27,342 nt of DNA from Candidatus Cloacimonadota bacterium (GTDB taxonomy: Bacteria; Cloacimonadota; Cloacimonadia; Cloacimonadales; TCS61). Position 1 is the first letter of the stretch. Every line of letters starts with the position of its first letter. Below are positions 445-7,641 of the stretch, one piece after another. The stretch spans positions 1 to 27,342 of the forward strand of contig JAIORR010000233.1 in NCBI GenBank assembly GCA_021108055.1, in the 5' to 3' direction. Both the position numbers and the translations under genes were made by a program. Under the pieces are notes generated by a model. It had not been told where the DNA came from. It worked only from the letters and a program-made list of their open reading frames with translations, and made no database searches.

Positions 445-1668
445 ATGCGAAATAAAATAATTATAGTTCTGCTTGTTTTATCAGGTTCTCTTTTTGGTAA
501 TTCGATCTTTTCGTTCTATGGCTTACCAAACCAGTTTTGCGGAAATGATGTTTATGGTCTTGGAATGGGAGAGACCGGTTGTGCAGATCTTTTCAGAATG
601 AATCAGAATATTTCAAATCCGTCTGCAATGACAACCTCAAATAAAGTGATATACTCCACAGCCGCTTCGATGGGATATATGTGGTATTATGATGATCTGG
701 ATAACACTTTCAGAGATGATGGACTGGCTCTTCCCTACTTTACGGTAGTCGTACCAATAAAATCTCACAGGTTTGGTTTCAATTTTAATATGGTATATTC
801 GGGAAACCTGGAAAATGAGGAACTTTCGGAATGGACGAACAGCACCGGAGATACTCTGGAATATAACGAAATCAACAGGGTAAGTTCCAATGTATATAAA
901 GCAGATCTCAGTTATGCCATCAAGAATCCGTATTTTAATCTGGGCGTATCTTTCAATTACTATTTCGGGCACAAGATCAGGTATTGGAAGCTCGATTTTG
1001 ACGACACTGATTACACAGACACAAAATATGAAATTGAAAAGACTTTTAAGAATCCGGGATTTTCTGCAGGGATCAGTAAAAAGATCGGGAATATATCTTT
1101 AGGTGCAGCCTACACTATGTTCACGGAACTGAAAGGAGAATCCACATACAAATACGGACATTCTCCATACGTTGATACTTTAGGCTTGGCAGATGATATT
1201 TTATATGAGATTCCAAATAAATTTGCCGGCGGAATCACCTGGAAATTTACAGAAAAATATAAAGTATCTTTTGATGGTCAATATGAAATGTGGGAAGATA
1301 CGGATATATATAATGAGAACACTTATAAATTTGGGTTGGGCTTTGCTTACGATCCGCTGAGTGGTTATGGAAAATGGTTTGAAAGAATACCTCTGAGGTT
1401 TGGCGGTTATGTACGCAAACTTCCTTTCCGGAAAAATGAAGAAGATATTATGGAAAAAGCTGTTACTCTGGGACTTTCAATTCCTTTAAAATCACCTAAC
1501 ACAAAAATAGAATTTGCTGCCAAATATCTTACCCGCGGCGATAAGGATATTCACGGGATCGGTGACAGATCGTTTATGATAACAATTGGTATATCGGGAT
1601 TTGATGTGTTTAAAAAGAAACATAAAAAAAATGATCACAGAGATATTCCCAAAGCAGATCGAAGGTAA
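445..1668 (+). CDS. Outer-membrane beta-barrel protein, FadL/OmpP1-like (hydrophobic-compound transporter-like)
   Basis: 407 aa with an N-terminal signal peptide, GLGMGETG...ISNPSA N-terminal motif and alternating amphipathic aromatic strands. SD GGGAGA upstream. The family call is by resemblance only. Confidence 0.55.
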   Translation: MRNKIIIVLLVLSGSLFGNSIFSFYGLPNQFCGNDVYGLGMGETGCADLFRMNQNISNPSAMTTSNKVIYSTAASMGYMWYYDDLDNTFRDDGLALPYFTVVVPIKSHRFGFNFNMVYSGNLENEELSEWTNSTGDTLEYNEINRVSSNVYKADLSYAIKNPYFNLGVSFNYYFGHKIRYWKLDFDDTDYTDTKYEIEKTFKNPGFSAGISKKIGNISLGAAYTMFTELKGESTYKYGHSPYVDTLGLADDILYEIPNKFAGGITWKFTEKYKVSFDGQYEMWEDTDIYNENTYKFGLGFAYDPLSGYGKWFERIPLRFGGYVRKLPFRKNEEDIMEKAVTLGLSIPLKSPNTKIEFAAKYLTRGDKDIHGIGDRSFMITIGISGFDVFKKKHKKNDHRDIPKADRR

Positions 1669-1677
1669 AAAATATTA

Positions 1678-3249
1678 ATGGGTTTGAGGTGGAGCTATTT
1701 CGACAAATTAGATTGTTCTATTGTTGATCAGATCAAGAAGAACAGGAATCTACCGGATTCCTTCTTTTCTTTTTCTATGAACGACATACCAGATATTTCA
1801 TTAATGAAAGATATAAAAAAAGCTTCAGAAAGAATTATCCGGGCTATTCACAGAAAAGAAAAAATAATAATATATGGTCACGATGATGTTGACGGCATTA
1901 CTTCCGCTTATATCTTATTTGATTTTTTAGAAAAAATAGGTTCACAAAATCATTATTATTATATTCCAAACCGCCTTGTAGATAATCATGGAATGCAGGA
2001 AAATTTTATAAATAAAGTTGAGAAAGAAAATTTTAACCTTGTGATCACGGTAGATGGCGGAATATCCTGCTCGGAAGCTATCGAAAAACTCAGAAACCTG
2101 GGATGCGATGTTATCGTAACCGACCACCATATAGTGCAGGAAAACAAAATCCCAAAGGGTTGTGCTATCGTTAACCCGAAACAAAGCGATTGTGATTATC
2201 CATTCGATATGCTGGCAGGTGTTGGCGTCACTTATTTTTTGATCCGTAATATTGCCGAAATTTTAAAAAGCGAGATCGACAGCAATTATCTGTTCTGGGT
2301 TGCCGTGGGAACCATATCCGACAAAGTTCCCCTGATCGGTGTGAACCGGATAATTGTGAAAGAGACTATAAAAAATTGGTTTGATTTTGACGATGCAACG
2401 TTACGGAAATTTGATAAATATTTATGGAATGCCGATAATTGTCATAAGAAGATAAAGATAATCCAATATATAATAAAGATTTTTTCCAATGGCAGAGACC
2501 TAAATGGAAAAAACATGGGATTAGAATTACTGCTGGCACCGGAAGATGAAAAAACAAGTATTATTGATAAACTTATTAGCGGACAAAGAAAATTTAAAGA
2601 AAACCTGAATAAAGTAATGGAATGTTATGATAAGATAAAACCGGAAAGTTTTGATAATCACTTTGTTTTCTTTGATAGCAAGAATATAATCCCTGTCGAA
2701 TTGCTGGGATTTTTTTCGGCAAGAATTTCTAAACAGTTTCTAATTCCAGTAGTTTTTCTAAAAGAAAAAGGAAATATTGTTGCGGGTGAAGCAAGATGTA
2801 CAAAAGGTTTCAATCTCGTTGAGTCCTTCTGTTTTTGCAAACAAAACCTTATACAATACGGCGGTCATGCAAAGGCAGCAGGATTTACGATAAAAAAGAA
2901 GAATATAAATAAATTTAGAAAAAAATTCAAAGAATATATCGAGATGAAGAAAGAAATTATAGAAGACAATAGAAAGATCGATATCGATGCGATCTTCACA
3001 ATAGATGAGATCGATAAATTTGATGATTACCTGCAATTAGATATTCACAATTTGCAGCCATTCGGACAGGGAAATCCAAATCCAAAATTCCTACTGAAGA
3101 ATTTCATTCCAAAACGTGATTCCCGAAAAATAAAAGTTATAGATAAAAATATTATTTTAAAACCAGATGAAAGCTATAATATTATTTTTAATTTAAAAGG
3201 TTCGTCTTTCAAACTGATAGACCATCGAAAAGTAAATTATATGTTGTAA
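1678..3249 (+). CDS. recJ: RecJ-like DHH/DHHA1 phosphoesterase (ssDNA exonuclease-like, divergent)
   Basis: Motifs YGHDDVDG, YYIPNRL, ITVDGG, TDHH, AGVGV, GTISD, GGHAKAAG and LQPFGQGNPNP. Confidence 0.75.
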   Translation: MGLRWSYFDKLDCSIVDQIKKNRNLPDSFFSFSMNDIPDISLMKDIKKASERIIRAIHRKEKIIIYGHDDVDGITSAYILFDFLEKIGSQNHYYYIPNRLVDNHGMQENFINKVEKENFNLVITVDGGISCSEAIEKLRNLGCDVIVTDHHIVQENKIPKGCAIVNPKQSDCDYPFDMLAGVGVTYFLIRNIAEILKSEIDSNYLFWVAVGTISDKVPLIGVNRIIVKETIKNWFDFDDATLRKFDKYLWNADNCHKKIKIIQYIIKIFSNGRDLNGKNMGLELLLAPEDEKTSIIDKLISGQRKFKENLNKVMECYDKIKPESFDNHFVFFDSKNIIPVELLGFFSARISKQFLIPVVFLKEKGNIVAGEARCTKGFNLVESFCFCKQNLIQYGGHAKAAGFTIKKKNINKFRKKFKEYIEMKKEIIEDNRKIDIDAIFTIDEIDKFDDYLQLDIHNLQPFGQGNPNPKFLLKNFIPKRDSRKIKVIDKNIILKPDESYNIIFNLKGSSFKLIDHRKVNYML

Positions 3250-3279: not shown

Positions 3280-3450
3280 ATGAGAATTAATAAAGAACTT
3301 TGTGATATCTGCGGAACCTGCGTTGCGGTGTGTCCAGCGGATGCCATCATTGTATCTGAATTTGAAGTAAAGATCGATAATAAAAAATGTACTAATTGCC
3401 TTAATTGTTTAAAGGTTTGTCCCATCAAAGCTATCGAGGAAGGTGACTAA
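3280..3450 (+). CDS. 2x[4Fe-4S] dicluster ferredoxin, 56 aa (not in ORF track)
   Basis: My translation: MRINKELCDICGTCVAVCPADAIIVSEFEVKIDNKKCTNCLNCLKVCPIKAIEEGD. Two CxxCxxCxxxCP motifs, SD GGAG upstream, and its TAA overlaps the next ATG (TAATG). Confidence 0.92.
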   Translation: MRINKELCDICGTCVAVCPADAIIVSEFEVKIDNKKCTNCLNCLKVCPIKAIEEGD

Positions 3451-4643
3451 TGGTACAAGATAGATATGATATAGTTATTATCGGAGCAGGACCAGCCGGA
3501 AGCGTTGCCGCCAGATTTGCAGCACAAAATGGTGCATCTGTTCTTATGCTGGAACGTGACCGTGAACCGGGCATTCCTGTGCGTTGTGCCGAAGGTGTTT
3601 CTCACAATGGAATAGCTCCTTTCATTGACATCGATGAACGGTGGATCGCTTCCCGGATAGAAATTGCAAAATTGCATGCACCAAATGGTGAAACAGCCAA
3701 AATGTATAATAATGGTTTAGGTTATGTTTTAGAACGAAGGGTCTTCGATACAGCTCTTTGCGAACTTGCTGCTAAACATGGGGCACATCTTATTACTAAA
3801 GCGGATGCTCTCGATCTATTGTGGGAAAAAGAGAAAATAACCGGAGTAAAATATAAATATTGCGGTGAGATAAAAACGGTGAAATGTGATATTGTCATCG
3901 GTGCGGATGGCGTGGAATCCCGCGTAGGAAGGTGGGCAGGAATAAAAACTGCCGTTCGTCTTGAAGACATAGATACTTGCGTTCAATATACACTGGCAGA
4001 TATTGATATTGAAGAAAATACCTGTGAATTTTATTTTGGGAATAATGTTTCTCCTGGCGGATATGTGTGGATATTTCCAAAATCCGATCATACAGCAAAT
4101 GTGGGGATAGGACTTTCCGGACATCTTTCGCATAAAAAGGGTCCAAAAAAATATCTCGATGAATTTGTGGAAAAACGCTTTCCCGATGCCAAGATAACTT
4201 ACACTGTTTATGGCGGCGTTCCCACATCTGCTACTCTTAAGGAGATAGTTCGTGATAACATTATGCTGGTTGGTGATGCTGCACGGCAGGTTAACCCGAT
4301 AACAGGCGGTGGTGTGGTGCAGGGAATGATTGCGGCAAGTATAGCAGGAAAAGTTGCTGCAGATGCGGTACGAGAAAAAAGATTCGATGCAAAATTCCTG
4401 AAAAAATACAGCAGTGAATGGGAAAAGAAACTTGGAAAAACTCAGAGGACAATGTTTACCATGAAAGAGAAATTTCTTACAATGAGCGATGAAAGATTTA
4501 ACAACATTGTACGTTTTTGCCAAAAAATTCCCAAAGATAAATTTGGTTTGAAGGTGCTTTTTACAGAAGCGGTCAAAGGAGATCCAAAACTCATGGTAGA
4601 TGTTGCAAAAGCATTTGTGATGAGTAAATTGAAAAGGAAATGA
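3450..4643 (+). CDS. Geranylgeranyl reductase family flavoprotein, archaeal DGGR-like
   Basis: GAGPAGS FAD-binding motif, PVRCAEG, GADGVESRVGRWAG, PGGYVWIFP and VGDAARQVNPITGGG. Confidence 0.85.
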   Translation: MVQDRYDIVIIGAGPAGSVAARFAAQNGASVLMLERDREPGIPVRCAEGVSHNGIAPFIDIDERWIASRIEIAKLHAPNGETAKMYNNGLGYVLERRVFDTALCELAAKHGAHLITKADALDLLWEKEKITGVKYKYCGEIKTVKCDIVIGADGVESRVGRWAGIKTAVRLEDIDTCVQYTLADIDIEENTCEFYFGNNVSPGGYVWIFPKSDHTANVGIGLSGHLSHKKGPKKYLDEFVEKRFPDAKITYTVYGGVPTSATLKEIVRDNIMLVGDAARQVNPITGGGVVQGMIAASIAGKVAADAVREKRFDAKFLKKYSSEWEKKLGKTQRTMFTMKEKFLTMSDERFNNIVRFCQKIPKDKFGLKVLFTEAVKGDPKLMVDVAKAFVMSKLKRK

Positions 4644-5230
4644 ATCCAAAACAAAAAAAGGAAATCTTTCGGAAGACAATACATGTCAGTTCGATCCTGC
4701 TTCCATTATCATATCGATATATTTTCCTGAACAACCGTAAGCTTGCGTTCCTGGTTTTGATCCCACTCACACTGATCGCATTAACAATAGAGGTTTTCAG
4801 GTTAGAGCATAAAACATTCAAAAAAATATTTTATAATATTTTTGGAATAATGCTTCGAAAACATGAGATAAATAATTTTACAGGTGCCACATATTTGATG
4901 ATCTCTGCCGTGATATGTATCGCTGTATTTCCGGCAGATATAGCATTTGTGGCTATTTCGTTCCTCGCTATCGGTGATACGCTTGCTGCACTTATTGGAA
5001 TTCCCCTTGGAAAAAGAAAACTTTTTAATACCGATAAAAGTCTGGAAGGAAGTATTGCCTGTTTTACGGGAACTTTTGTGTTCGCATTGTTTTTTTTGAA
5101 TCCGATAGTGTCCATGGCGGGAGCTTTTACTGCAACGGTTGCCGAGTTTTCCAAAATACCTCTTGACGATAATATTAAAATACCCATTTCTTCCGGTTTG
5201 ATGATGTCTTTTATGAATTTAATTTTTTAA
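4640..5230 (+). CDS. CTP-dependent membrane kinase, dolichol kinase/phytol kinase/DGK1 (SEC59/VTE5) family
   Basis: Polytopic membrane protein with RKTIH, RKHE..TGATY, GDTLAALIG, KSLEGS and DDNIKIP motifs. ATGA overlap with GGR. Confidence 0.8.
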   Translation: MNPKQKKEIFRKTIHVSSILLPLSYRYIFLNNRKLAFLVLIPLTLIALTIEVFRLEHKTFKKIFYNIFGIMLRKHEINNFTGATYLMISAVICIAVFPADIAFVAISFLAIGDTLAALIGIPLGKRKLFNTDKSLEGSIACFTGTFVFALFFLNPIVSMAGAFTATVAEFSKIPLDDNIKIPISSGLMMSFMNLIF

Positions 5231-5245
5231 AAAAGGGAAGTTATT

Positions 5246-6181
5246 ATGAAGTTATCTTTTATTATTCCGGTTTTTAATGAAGAAGAAAGTATCGATAAAT
5301 TGTACTTAGAAATAATTGAAAACATTAAAGGCTATAAGTATGAGATCATTTTTATTAATGACGGCAGTACGGATAGCAGCTATGAAATCATGAAACAAAT
5401 GGCTGCTAAAGATAGAAATGTGAAACTTCTTAATTTCCGAAAAAACTTTGGTAAATCTGCCGGACTGCAAGCCGGTTTCGATGTTGCAGATGGCGATATA
5501 TTATTTACGATGGATGCAGACCTTCAGGATGATCCGAAAGAGATTCCCAACTTCCTGAAAAAAATTGAAGAGGGATATGACCTGGTTACAGGTTGGAAAA
5601 AAAAACGAAAAGATCCCATTTCAAAAACTTTTCCTTCAAAACTGTTTAACTCTATTACTTCAAGTTTTTTCAAGATGAAACTGCATGATTATAATTGCGG
5701 GTTCAAAGCATATAGAAAAGAAGTTATTAAAGAACTTGATATTTATGGAGAAATGCACAGGTACATCCCCGCTTTAGCAAGCAGTAAAGGATTCAGAATT
5801 GCGGAAATCCCGGTGAAACACCATAAACGCAAATTTGGAAAAACAAAATATGGTTCCGAAAGATATCTGCGTGGTTTTCTGGACCTTCTTACCGTTAAAC
5901 TTGTAACGGGATATATTCACAGTCCGCTTTATCTTTTTGGAAGGATTGGAGCAATATTTGGTTTTATCGGTTTTTTTATCGGATTGTATCTTACGATCAT
6001 GAAATTGGGATTTGGTCAACCGCTTTATAATCGTCCGCTGCTATACCTGGCAACCTTGCTTATAATGATTGGATTACAATTCTTTTCTATCGGGCTGCTG
6101 GGAGAATTGATCGTGAACCAGAACCGCAACATGAACAGGAAAAAGAATATCTCGATTTCGGAAAAAATAAATTTTAATTGA
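5246..6181 (+). CDS. GT2 polyprenol-phosphate glycosyltransferase (GtrB/ArnC/DPM-like)
   Basis: IIPVFNEEE, NDGSTD, RKNFGKSA, DADLQDDP, DYNCGFKAYR, EMHRYIP and two C-terminal TM helices. Confidence 0.87.
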   Translation: MKLSFIIPVFNEEESIDKLYLEIIENIKGYKYEIIFINDGSTDSSYEIMKQMAAKDRNVKLLNFRKNFGKSAGLQAGFDVADGDILFTMDADLQDDPKEIPNFLKKIEEGYDLVTGWKKKRKDPISKTFPSKLFNSITSSFFKMKLHDYNCGFKAYRKEVIKELDIYGEMHRYIPALASSKGFRIAEIPVKHHKRKFGKTKYGSERYLRGFLDLLTVKLVTGYIHSPLYLFGRIGAIFGFIGFFIGLYLTIMKLGFGQPLYNRPLLYLATLLIMIGLQFFSIGLLGELIVNQNRNMNRKKNISISEKINFN

Positions 6182-6282
6182 TAGAATTATATTGAAGCAT
6201 GTATTATAAAAACATTGTGTGTTAACAATTAGAATCAATTTTGCAGAACTCATTTGAACAACAAAAAAGGAGAGAAAAAGAA

Positions 6283-7641
6283 ATGAAAAGTCATTTATCT
6301 GAATTTATAACGATAATGCAGAATGACGGATTGAACGATCTGGTAATTCGATCTTTTTCTGATTATTATGAACAAATATTAGCCGGAGCAACAGGCAAAT
6401 TATCCGAAAATGAAATAGAACCTCCATCCAAAAAAAGTATAATAGATTATAATGAGCTTAAGGTGACCGATTCTTCTCCACTTGAAAAAATGGTGGTGAT
6501 AAAACTTAATGGCGGACTGGGGACCAGCATGGGACTAAAGAAAGCTAAAACTCTGCTTAAAGTAAAGGAAGACAATAACTTTCTGGATATTATTACTCTT
6601 CAAATTCTGCAACTGAGAAAGACCTCAGGGAAAGATATTCCTCTTCTGTTTATGAACAGTTTCAACACGCGGAAAGACACAATTTCTTATCTTGAAAAAT
6701 ATCCGGAGCTTCCTCTTCCCCATCTTCCACTGGATTTTGTTCAGAATAAATTTCCAAAGATAAAACAGGAAGATCTGTCTCCTCTGAAAAGTAAAAATGA
6801 TAACCAGAACTGGAATCCTCCCGGTCATGGTGAGATATATCTGGTTCTAAAAATTTCAGGCGTGCTTGATAAATTATTAGATAAAGGATTTGAATATGCT
6901 TTTATTTCTAATTCGGATAATCTGGGAGCGATCGTAGATGAAAAAATATTGTCTCATTTTGCAATTACGAAGGAACCGTTTTTAATGGAAGTATGCAGGC
7001 GGACAGAAATGGATAAGAAAGGCGGTCATCTGGCTCAAACTAAAGATGGGCAGCTTATCCTGCGGGAAACCGCTCAATGTCCCGAAGGTGAAATGGACTC
7101 TTTTCAGGATGTGAATAAATATCGTTATTTCAACACGAATAATCTTTGGGTAAACCTGAAGGCATTAAAGAAAAAATTGAATGAAAGCAATAATTTTGTG
7201 CCGCTGTCTATGATCGTGAATCCAAAAGAAGTCGAAGGCACAAAGGTCTTCCAGATAGAATCTGCAATGGGTGCTGCAATCAGTATTTTCAAAGGTTCCA
7301 AAGCTATTGCCGTGGAAAGGAACAGGTTCGCACCTGTAAAAAAAACAACCGATCTCCTGGGAATCTGGAGCGATGCCTTTGTACTTACGGATGATTATAG
7401 ATTGATCCTGGACAAAAACTTGAATCAACCTCCGGCAATTAAATTGAATGAAAATTATTACAAAACCATCGATCAACTTCAGAATCATTTTAAGGATGGA
7501 ATTCCTTCCTTGAAAGATTGTGCCAATCTGACAATCGAAGGCGATGTTTATTTTGGGAAAAACGTAAAAATCATCGGAGATGTAAAAATAAATGATAGTA
7601 AAAAGTTGGAGAATTGCAGGTTGGAAAATGTAGAAATTTAA
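6283..7641 (+). CDS. UTP-glucose-1-phosphate uridylyltransferase, eukaryote-like UDPGP family (not GalU type)
   Basis: KLNGGLGTSMG, LFMNSFNT, WNPPGHGEIY, NSDNLGA, KKGGHL, LRETAQ, FNTNNLW and RFAPVK. I prefer ATG 6283 (AAGGAG upstream) over TTG 6241. Confidence 0.9.
   Translation: MKSHLSEFITIMQNDGLNDLVIRSFSDYYEQILAGATGKLSENEIEPPSKKSIIDYNELKVTDSSPLEKMVVIKLNGGLGTSMGLKKAKTLLKVKEDNNFLDIITLQILQLRKTSGKDIPLLFMNSFNTRKDTISYLEKYPELPLPHLPLDFVQNKFPKIKQEDLSPLKSKNDNQNWNPPGHGEIYLVLKISGVLDKLLDKGFEYAFISNSDNLGAIVDEKILSHFAITKEPFLMEVCRRTEMDKKGGHLAQTKDGQLILRETAQCPEGEMDSFQDVNKYRYFNTNNLWVNLKALKKKLNESNNFVPLSMIVNPKEVEGTKVFQIESAMGAAISIFKGSKAIAVERNRFAPVKKTTDLLGIWSDAFVLTDDYRLILDKNLNQPPAIKLNENYYKTIDQLQNHFKDGIPSLKDCANLTIEGDVYFGKNVKIIGDVKINDSKKLENCRLENVEI

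Follow-up and report, generated by a model that had tools for sequence, protein, structure and literature searches.

We analyzed a five-gene cluster at positions 3280-7641 of a 27,342-nt stretch of DNA (contig JAIORR010000233.1, hereafter "the window"), which is one contig (C1) of a fragmented Cloacimonadota metagenome-assembled genome (MAG) of 2.13 Mb and 94% completeness. The five open reading frames (ORFs), all on the forward strand, encode a ferredoxin (Fd), a geranylgeranyl reductase (GGR), a 196-aa membrane protein (here called Kin), a family 2 glycosyltransferase (GT2) and a UTP-glucose-1-phosphate uridylyltransferase (UGPase):

3280..3450, + strand: ferredoxin with 2x[4Fe-4S] clusters, 56 aa, probable electron donor of GGR (Fer4_10/Fer4 matches, cluster motifs)
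3450..4643, + strand: archaeal-type geranylgeranyl reductase, FAD flavoprotein, 397 aa (GGR_cat, TIGR02032, match to 3OZ2)
4640..5230, + strand: Kin, polytopic membrane protein with the SEC59/DGK1/VTE5 fold, 196 aa (CTP motif, fold matches of the AlphaFold2 (AF2) model)
5246..6181, + strand: polyprenyl-phosphate glycosyltransferase GT2 of ArnC/GtrB/DPM1 architecture, 311 aa (PF00535, PDB matches)
6283..7641, + strand: eukaryote-type UGPase, 452 aa (PF01704, PDB matches)

At the Fd/GGR junction (TAATG), the last A of the Fd stop codon TAA (3448-3450) also opens the GGR start codon ATG (3450), while GGR and Kin overlap by ATGA (4640-4643). The Kin stop (5230) and the GT2 ATG (5246) are separated by 15 nt, and the GT2 stop (6181) and the UGPase ATG (6283) by a 101-nt spacer, in which an AAAGGAGAG ribosome-binding site precedes the ATG; an in-frame TTG at 6241, 5' of this ATG, is the mechanical start of the UGPase ORF. 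The spacer is unusually long (~20 nt in relatives), and it holds a promoter-like TTGATA-18-TATTAT (6178-6207), a kind of site no commoner than in shuffled sequence. A promoter/terminator scan of the window revealed no terminator-like sites between the cluster genes, and its 13 sites represented no excess over shuffled sequence (15.4). The cluster genes are presumably co-transcribed.

The first two genes encode an archaeal-type reductase and its probable electron donor. Fd is a Fer4 dicluster protein (Pfam Fer4_10 and Fer4, E about 3e-14) with two CxxCxxCxxxCP motifs (Cys 8, 11, 14, 18 and Cys 37, 40, 43, 47, with Pro after each set), and its gene adjoins that of GGR in 68 related loci. GGR exceeded the cut-offs of both Pfam GGR_cat (E 1.2e-29; 102.5 vs 27 bits) and the TIGR02032 family (237.4 vs 158.8 bits). 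Its top NCBIfam models were the archaeal digeranylgeranylglycerophospholipid (DGGGPL) reductases, with ChlP (155 bits) and MenJ (69 bits) far lower; the scores were below the equivalog cut-offs of those reductases (272.8 vs 780 for NF041160; 191.3 vs 580 for NF041080). The closest PDB entry was 3OZ2, the DGGGPL reductase of Thermoplasma acidophilum, which was matched at full length (E 3.7e-72). The motifs described for this enzyme family, i.e., GxGxxG (FAD), the catalytic Cys47 of archaeal enzymes, PxxYxWxFP and LxGD (PMC10821996), are represented by GAGPAG (12-17, FAD), RCAEG with Cys46, PGGYVWIFP (202-210) and LVGDAA (~273-278), all invariant in seven diverse Cloacimonadota GGRs.

The model of an Fd-GGR complex scored 0.90, as compared with 0.00 for the best of three controls (51 of 78 solved complexes attained this mark, as compared with 2 of 108 mismatched pairs). 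In the predicted interface the cluster loops of Fd lie on GGR residues 36-37, 45 and 155-158, beside Cys46 and the FAD. It is plausible from this model that Fd is the dedicated reductant of GGR. Such a partnership has a precedent in Methanosarcina acetivorans, whose GGR requires a ferredoxin encoded at its own locus, and in Haloferax volcanii a single GGR is needed to saturate both diether lipids and dolichol phosphate (PMC10821996).

Kin of the window matched no Pfam model (even at E 10) and no NCBIfam model, and 21 of the 81 members of its family matched PF01148 weakly (best E 4e-6). Public names of close homologues are inconsistent (SEC59/DGK1/VTE5 family, dolichol kinase, phosphatidate cytidylyltransferase), and the cluster names of distant homologues give no guidance (two read "dolichol kinase", and one denotes a CoaE fusion). 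The protein carries the motif D113-TL-A116-ALI-G120-IPL-G124, followed after seven residues by D-K133-S-L-E136-G137; among the 81 members D113, G120 and G137 are invariant, and A116, G124, K133 and E136 are conserved in at least 90%. Relative to the CTP-binding motif of dolichol kinase, DxxAxxxGxxxGx8KKTxEG (PMC13586052), the spacing is one residue shorter, D replaces the first K and S replaces T. The motif is common to CdsA too and so is not diagnostic alone; the family profile also matches the CdsA of T. maritima (4Q2E, E 0.002).

The alignment-based AF2 model of Kin (pLDDT 96.6; a single-sequence model with pLDDT 48 was discarded) matched the folds of Rickettsia RP860 (TM 0.87) and M. jannaschii MJ1137, of fungal DGK1 (TM 0.82-0.85, yeast 0.83; 25-27% identity), of SEC59/DOLK (TM 0.70-0.76) and of plant and cyanobacterial phytol/farnesol kinases (VTE5/FOLK; TM 0.66-0.76), as compared with a TM of 0.33-0.51, mostly near 0.40, and a root-mean-square deviation around 10 Å for CdsA. 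When the model was compared with the PDB by Foldseek, weak CdsA matches alone were obtained (E 0.027, TM 0.37); to our knowledge, no kinase of the SEC59/DGK1/VTE5 family has a solved structure. Because the modelled fold is much closer to DGK1, VTE5 and SEC59 than to CdsA, Kin would therefore belong to the kinase branch of the CTP superfamily, and would be neither a CdsA nor a CDP-archaeol synthase (CarS). As for its substrate, the gene context appears to point to a polyprenol (via GT2 and the neighbours of distant homologues described below), and the ranking of fold matches to diacylglycerol (DAG).

Two distant Kin homologues from other bacterial contexts (32-33% identical; L104:3621-6642 and L107:3340-6147) are encoded directly downstream of, and co-oriented with, genes of SLT-domain lytic transglycosylases, which points to a cell-wall context. 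Another natural arrangement is found in the metagenomic protein P0184 (402 aa), a fusion of the dephospho-CoA kinase CoaE (1-176) to a Kin-like domain (208-390).

GT2 and UGPase are ordinary members of their families. GT2 matched PF00535 (E 4.6e-36, residues 4-164) and, in the PDB, ArnC (2.2e-50, residues 2-290), GtrB sll0501 (7.7e-34, residues 2-289) and the DPMS of Pyrococcus (8.5e-22). It features DGS at 39-41, the DxD motif DAD at 90-92 and C-terminal hydrophobic helices at 228-246 and 272-290, and scored below the equivalog cut-offs of ArnC (190 vs 529) and PgfS (166 vs 500). UGPase matched PF01704 over nearly the whole profile (462.7 bits) and no NCBIfam model. All 16 of its PDB matches at E <= 1e-10 were UGPases (best 4e-110), with those of Trypanosoma and Leishmania (1e-110 to 1e-108) ahead of those of plants, human and yeast (about 1e-82 to 1e-89). 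The most likely sugar donor of GT2 is UDP-glucose, a proposal derived solely from the neighbouring UGPase. Among possible consumers of the sugar-lipid, the PMT_2-type GT-C glycosyltransferase is absent from the window's genome (94% complete, fragmented), a PMT-type GT-C was found in two of nine congeners but not in this genome, and the oligosaccharyltransferase (OST) subunit STT3 was found in none of the nine genomes of the genus. In genome G106 (L089:5683-6582, - strand), of a Kin-less family described below, GT2 overlaps by 11 nt a downstream gene for an LpxL-type lipid A acyltransferase (Pfam E 1e-43), which hints that the GT2 product there serves lipopolysaccharide/lipid A modification.

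An earlier note on this stretch, made by a model from the sequence alone, had described the same five genes and had read them as possibly one isoprenoid pathway. Reading the sequence bore out all of its junctions (TAATG, ATGA, 15 nt and ~100 nt), and family models, PDB matches and the Kin fold model agreed with its five gene identities, including a kinase of SEC59/DGK1/VTE5 type (fold matches at TM 0.70-0.87) and a GtrB/DPM-like GT2 (ArnC/GtrB/DPM1 architecture with full-length PDB matches). Its idea of Fd as the partner of GGR is likewise supported by the complex model and its controls.

Elsewhere in the window's genome, a polyprenyl synthase, a UbiA-family protein resembling digeranylgeranylglyceryl phosphate synthase (DGGGPS; NF009521, 199 bits) and geranylgeranylglyceryl phosphate synthase (GGGPS, PcrB; TIGR01769, 217 bits vs cut-off 162) are encoded in a row with overlapping ends on contig C73 (L004:1198-3666), followed by CpsB/CapC, an epimerase, a methyltransferase, an LPG-synthase transmembrane (TM) protein and MoxR. 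Both of the synthases that the earlier note had proposed to look for are thus present in the genome. In a published study, the GGGPS/DGGGPS pair of this phylum was shown biochemically to make archaeal-type ether lipids, and the GGRs of Cloacimonetes genomes were linked to ether-lipid saturation (PMC7852524). The genome also encodes UppS, adjoining CdsA, and BacA, while CarS (PF01864) had no match anywhere in it at E <= 1. Of the further partners that the earlier note had considered, the cis-prenyltransferase is represented by UppS, but no GT-C was found in the genome and no STT3 in the genus. A second UbiA-family gene lies on contig C62 (L002:1501-2097, - strand; TIGR01475, 214 bits vs cut-off 181); it resembles MqnP, and its presence suggests that a prenylated aromatic compound is made by this organism, which would commonly be considered fermentative.

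Comparison of 80 related loci, all from Cloacimonadota or from MAGs so placed, revealed a recurring order of BamG-like, RecJ, Fd, GGR, Kin and GT2. GGR is present in 71 of the 80; in seven others RecJ is directly followed by Kin-GT2, and two are cut by contig ends. This arrangement is far more than chance, and to that extent the gene order proposed as a check in the earlier note is kept. Where a locus extends far enough, GT2 nearly always lies downstream of Kin (L008 and two loci with spacers deviate), while UGPase follows GT2 in one subclade only, which includes the window. In the window itself, positions 445-3249 encode the BamG-like outer-membrane protein (NF053685, 119 bits, below cut-off) and RecJ, which are conserved upstream neighbours phylum-wide. 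Since these two genes are conserved neighbours as well, gene order by itself is weak evidence of shared function here.

The distribution of the genes was examined in 232 Cloacimonadota species genomes. GGGPS was found in 109 and GGR (any match) in 124, and 102 of the 109 genomes with GGGPS also encode a GGR at least 45% identical to that of the window. Of the other seven, four yielded no Kin either, probably because the locus was unassembled. Kin, on the other hand, was found in 209 of the 232 genomes (139 of the 151 of high quality), and in the largest family (98 species), which has no GGGPS and almost no GGR, it was found in 95 of 98. Thus Fd-GGR and Kin-GT2 are separable modules, as Kin occurs phylum-wide with or without GGR while the conserved form of GGR follows GGGPS. 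DgkA (PF01219) was found in only three of the 232 genomes and is absent from that of the window, and Kin may be its non-orthologous replacement in the phylum.

Several loci depart from the usual arrangement. In L008:1733-8019, the closest relative (91% nucleotide identity to window 3501-5233), synteny stops exactly after the Kin stop codon, and PEGA/FGE-sulfatase, Bro-N and HEPN proteins follow in place of GT2-UGPase; in L013 and L051, 0.65-1.85 kb is inserted between Kin and GT2. These breaks after Kin reflect either an insertion hotspot or chimeric contigs. Two loci labelled Armatimonadota (L030 and L031) have a typical Cloacimonadota organization, encode proteins 68-81% identical to those of the window and have GGRs that branch within Cloacimonadota; mis-binning or mislabelling of these MAG contigs is the probable explanation.

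The lineages that lack GGGPS provide a further view of the two modules. When the genes around the cluster (BamG-like, RecJ and GT2) were used to build a tree, these lineages formed one clade (SH-aLRT 99); this tree and the GGR tree were quick searches with no archaeal outgroup and no ChlP or MenJ, and GGR is placed relative to archaea solely by its model scores and its PDB match. In two complete genomes of the clade (G106 and G101; L100 and L102), the locus equivalent to that on C73 is intact minus exactly DGGGPS-GGGPS: the polyprenyl synthase is directly followed by CpsB, the epimerase, the LPG-synthase TM protein and MoxR. The loss of the two synthases was probably a single, clean excision. 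Within the clade Fd-GGR was subsequently lost at least three times; one family retains Fd-GGR-Kin-GT2, two genera retain GGR-Kin-GT2, and eight species of another family, in which Kin has been deleted, retain Fd-GGR-GT2.

The retained GGRs are 34-45% identical to the window's GGR, as compared with 54-64% in GGGPS-positive lineages at equal divergence of RecJ and BamG, and form long branches behind a well-supported split in the quick tree. They nevertheless keep every catalytic motif, their ORFs are intact in all eight species, and their pairwise dN/dS is about 0.06-0.22 (approximate, as dS is saturated), which indicates, at the level of codon comparison, that they are under purifying selection. 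In five GGGPS-less genomes that carry GGR (four of them single-contig), no UbiA-family gene and no squalene or phytoene synthase was found, while each encodes two trans-polyprenyl synthases. As neither GGGPS nor a UbiA-family gene is present, the substrate of GGR in these genomes should be neither an ether lipid nor a prenylquinone; the obvious remaining candidates are cis-polyprenyl (bactoprenol) lipids or the product of the second polyprenyl synthase.

Taken together, the locus is best explained as two modules within a very old, phylum-wide neighbourhood of BamG-like, RecJ, [Fd-GGR], Kin, GT2 and [UGPase]. That Fd-GGR and Kin-GT2(-UGPase) are juxtaposed lipid modules with different histories is a reading that we hold with somewhat better than even confidence; the likelihoods assigned to it and to its rivals overlap and are not exclusive. 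A mechanism can be proposed accordingly in which we infer all substrates, the use of CTP and the sugar: i) Fd would dock near the FAD/Cys46 site of GGR and deliver low-potential electrons to the flavin; ii) GGR would mainly hydrogenate the geranylgeranyl chains of ether lipids produced by the polyprenyl synthase-DGGGPS-GGGPS operon of C73; iii) Kin would phosphorylate a membrane alcohol with CTP to give a lipid monophosphate, most likely polyprenyl (undecaprenyl) phosphate; iv) UGPase would supply UDP-glucose; and v) GT2 would load the lipid phosphate with a hexose, most likely glucose, yielding a polyprenyl-phosphate-hexose that would serve as donor in the glycosylation of the envelope. This scheme leaves room for GGR to act, to a minor extent, on the polyprenyl carrier too, for which the H. 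volcanii enzyme is a precedent.

Several lines of evidence weigh against this two-module proposal: i) a GT-C consumer of the polyprenyl-phosphate-sugar was not found in the window's genome, which is 94% complete; ii) the top characterised structural match of Kin is a DAG kinase and not a polyprenol kinase; iii) GGR and Kin are translationally coupled (ATGA) in the window and across the family, a hint that they may act in one pathway; iv) Fd-GGR persists under selection directly upstream of GT2 in GGGPS-less lineages; and v) the genomes are related and not independent, so that the co-occurrence rests on few evolutionary events, which the counts overstate. A second role of GGR on polyprenyl carriers is accordingly conceivable, albeit doubtful.

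The strongest rival is that of a single pathway, in which Fd-GGR would saturate at least one isoprene unit of a polyprenol or polyprenyl phosphate, Kin would (re)phosphorylate the alcohol with CTP and GT2 would add glucose, drawn from the UDP-glucose of UGPase, to form a dolichol-like, partly saturated carrier, with ether-lipid saturation as a parallel or secondary job of GGR. We regard this as rather unlikely. It accounts for the tight coupling of the genes (TAATG, ATGA and the 15-nt gap), for the order kept in 71 of 80 loci, and for the retention of Fd-GGR by GT2 under purifying selection without GGGPS, where, in the five checked genomes without UbiA-family genes or squalene/phytoene synthases, UppS-type polyprenyl lipids are the obvious remaining isoprenoid substrate; moreover, one GGR serves both diether lipids and dolichol phosphate in H. 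volcanii (PMC10821996), and reduction followed by rephosphorylation is the logic of eukaryotic dolichol (PMC13586052). However, Kin-GT2 occurs without GGR in about 100 species and GGR-GT2 without Kin in eight, so each step can do without the others; it is GGGPS, not Kin-GT2, that the conserved form of GGR follows; and GGR has been lost repeatedly after the loss of GGGPS, which makes it dispensable for the carrier module. Furthermore, the retained GGRs have evolved fast, perhaps because they took on a different function, one not shared by the GGGPS-positive genome of the window, and the consumers were not found (STT3 in the genus, GT-C in the genome).

The single, co-inherited pathway of the earlier note is therefore not borne out: GGR tracks GGGPS (102 of 109) while Kin-GT2 is phylum-wide with or without it, one family keeps Fd-GGR-GT2 without Kin, UGPase is adjacent in a subclade only, and neither STT3 (0/9 in the genus) nor GT-C (in the genome) was found. 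As for the product it had proposed, a saturated archaeol-type lipid agrees with what had been inferred in print (PMC7852524), while a carrier resembling dolichyl-phosphate-glucose is conceivable in view of the Fd-GGR kept under selection without GGGPS, UbiA or phytoene/squalene synthase. In a version of that second possibility, which we consider rather unlikely, Fd-GGR would also, or in GGGPS-less lineages only, hydrogenate a bactoprenol-type polyprenyl phosphate to a partly saturated carrier, which would be charged with glucose by GT2 and, in most lineages, replenished by the CTP kinase.

A second rival concerns Kin alone, which could be a CTP-dependent kinase of DAG (or of archaeol/digeranylgeranylglycerol, DGGG-OH) of the DGK1 type that replaces DgkA and converts diradylglycerol to phosphatidate or archaetidate for CdsA; its position beside GT2 and GGR would then reflect a general membrane-lipid neighbourhood and not a carrier pathway. 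This is unlikely in our view, even though fungal DGK1 ranks ahead of VTE5 and SEC59 among the fold matches, DgkA is missing from the window's genome and from 229 of the 232 phylum genomes where Kin is near-universal, and CdsA is encoded in the genome. A GT2 of polyprenyl-phosphate type adjoins Kin in almost all loci, the two distant homologues downstream of SLT genes suggest the cell wall and undecaprenyl phosphate instead of phospholipid recycling, and the eight Kin-less species also have no DgkA match; the fold scores themselves do not resolve the substrate.

Two further candidates were rejected as very improbable. That Kin is a cytidylyltransferase standing in for the absent CarS (an absence also noted in PMC7852524), as its translational coupling to GGR and its membership of the CTP-binding superfamily of CdsA (profile vs 4Q2E, E 0.002, over DxxAxxxGxxxG...KSxEG) might suggest, is contradicted by its near-universal presence in lineages without GGGPS or DGGGPS, by a kinase-like fold (TM 0.70-0.87 to kinases vs 0.40 to CdsA, with CarS not among the matches) and by the presence of a regular CdsA, an enzyme known to accept archaetidate (PMC7852524). 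That GGR saturates a prenylquinone side chain in the manner of MenJ, or another non-carrier isoprenoid, gains something from the MqnP-like gene on C62 but is at odds with the model scores (MenJ 69 bits vs 273 for a DGGGPL reductase), with the retention of GGR in genomes without any UbiA-family gene and with its tracking of GGGPS.

No bacteria are better documented to possess a functional archaeal GGGPS/DGGGPS pair than Cloacimonadota, which therefore bear directly on the "lipid divide"; the two-module locus supplies the likely saturating enzyme and its dedicated electron donor, both of which are needed to rebuild fully saturated archaeal lipids heterologously. The GGGPS-less clade, in which the reductase is kept by GT2, constitutes a natural experiment that renders testable whether GGR saturates bacterial glycan carriers, and Kin is a candidate lipid kinase of a phylum lacking DgkA. 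Were the carrier saturated, it would be the first bacterial counterpart of the saturated carriers of archaea and eukaryotes, with an origin that could be followed back to archaeal lipid genes first acquired and later lost in part; were it only ordinary undecaprenyl-phosphate-glucose, the locus would be an interesting yet ordinary juxtaposition. Relative to the searchable literature, two aspects are new: the conserved pairing of a small kinase of DGK1/VTE5 fold with an ArnC/GtrB-type GT2 across a DgkA-less phylum, and the evidence from evolution that the reductase retains a role once the ether-lipid synthases are gone.

Among known systems, the ArnC and GtrB glycosyltransferases share with the window's GT2 the GT2 domain, the DxD motif, two C-terminal TM helices and alignment over the full length. 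The window's enzyme misses the ArnC cut-off, so its sugar specificity differs or is not assigned by the models, and it is partnered with a protein of CTP-kinase fold and not with arn or gtr partners. Yeast DGK1 (TM 0.82-0.85) and the plant/cyanobacterial phytol kinase VTE5 (TM 0.69-0.76) match the fold of Kin over all of its 196 aa at 19-27% identity, while Kin differs in its lack of an N-terminal extension, its bacterial host and its gene context.

The supply of dolichyl-phosphate-hexose (polyprenol reduction, SEC59/DOLK, a GT2 of DPM1/ALG5 type, and UGPase) is mirrored in the Kin fold and its DxxAxxxGxxxG...K[ST]xEG motif (PMC13586052), in a GT2 similar to the DPMS of Pyrococcus, in a UGPase of eukaryotic type and in a reductase gene adjoining the kinase gene. 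However, Kin, at 196 aa, is much shorter than DOLK (over 500 aa) and resembles DGK1 and VTE5 more closely; a GGR flavoprotein takes the place of SRD5A3/DFG10 as the reductase; a search of the genus for OST was negative (0/9); and the modules are not co-inherited.

The ether-lipid gene set of Cloacimonetes (Villanueva et al. 2020/21, PMC7852524) comes from the same phylum and comprises GGGPS, DGGGPS, polyprenyl synthases and a GGR related to euryarchaeal enzymes, with CarS absent; one syntenic locus (L015) even derives from a NIOZ-UU MAG record (isolate NIOZ-UU2). In the sections of that paper that were consulted the GGRs are named, "ferredoxin" occurs in the reference list alone and dolichol is unmentioned, and the neighbouring Kin, GT2 and UGPase and the clade with Fd-GGR but without GGGPS/DGGGPS are not described; a literature search on Cloacimonadota and geranylgeranyl reductase found nothing beyond this study, which uses the older phylum name.

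The closest parallel to the first module is the archaeal DGGGPL reductase with its locus ferredoxin (3OZ2; M. acetivorans), with which it shares the 397-aa length, full-length similarity and all motifs of the reductase, a small 2x[4Fe-4S] ferredoxin gene abutting the GGR gene, a confident predicted interface, and the presence of GGGPS and DGGGPS in the same genome. It differs in that the host is bacterial, the equivalog cut-offs are missed, the pair precedes a lipid kinase-like gene and GT2, and orthologues persist in relatives that lost the ether-lipid synthases. With Fd-GGR the archaeal Fd:GGR unit gains a new member from bacteria, whose ether-lipid role had already been inferred in print (PMC7852524).

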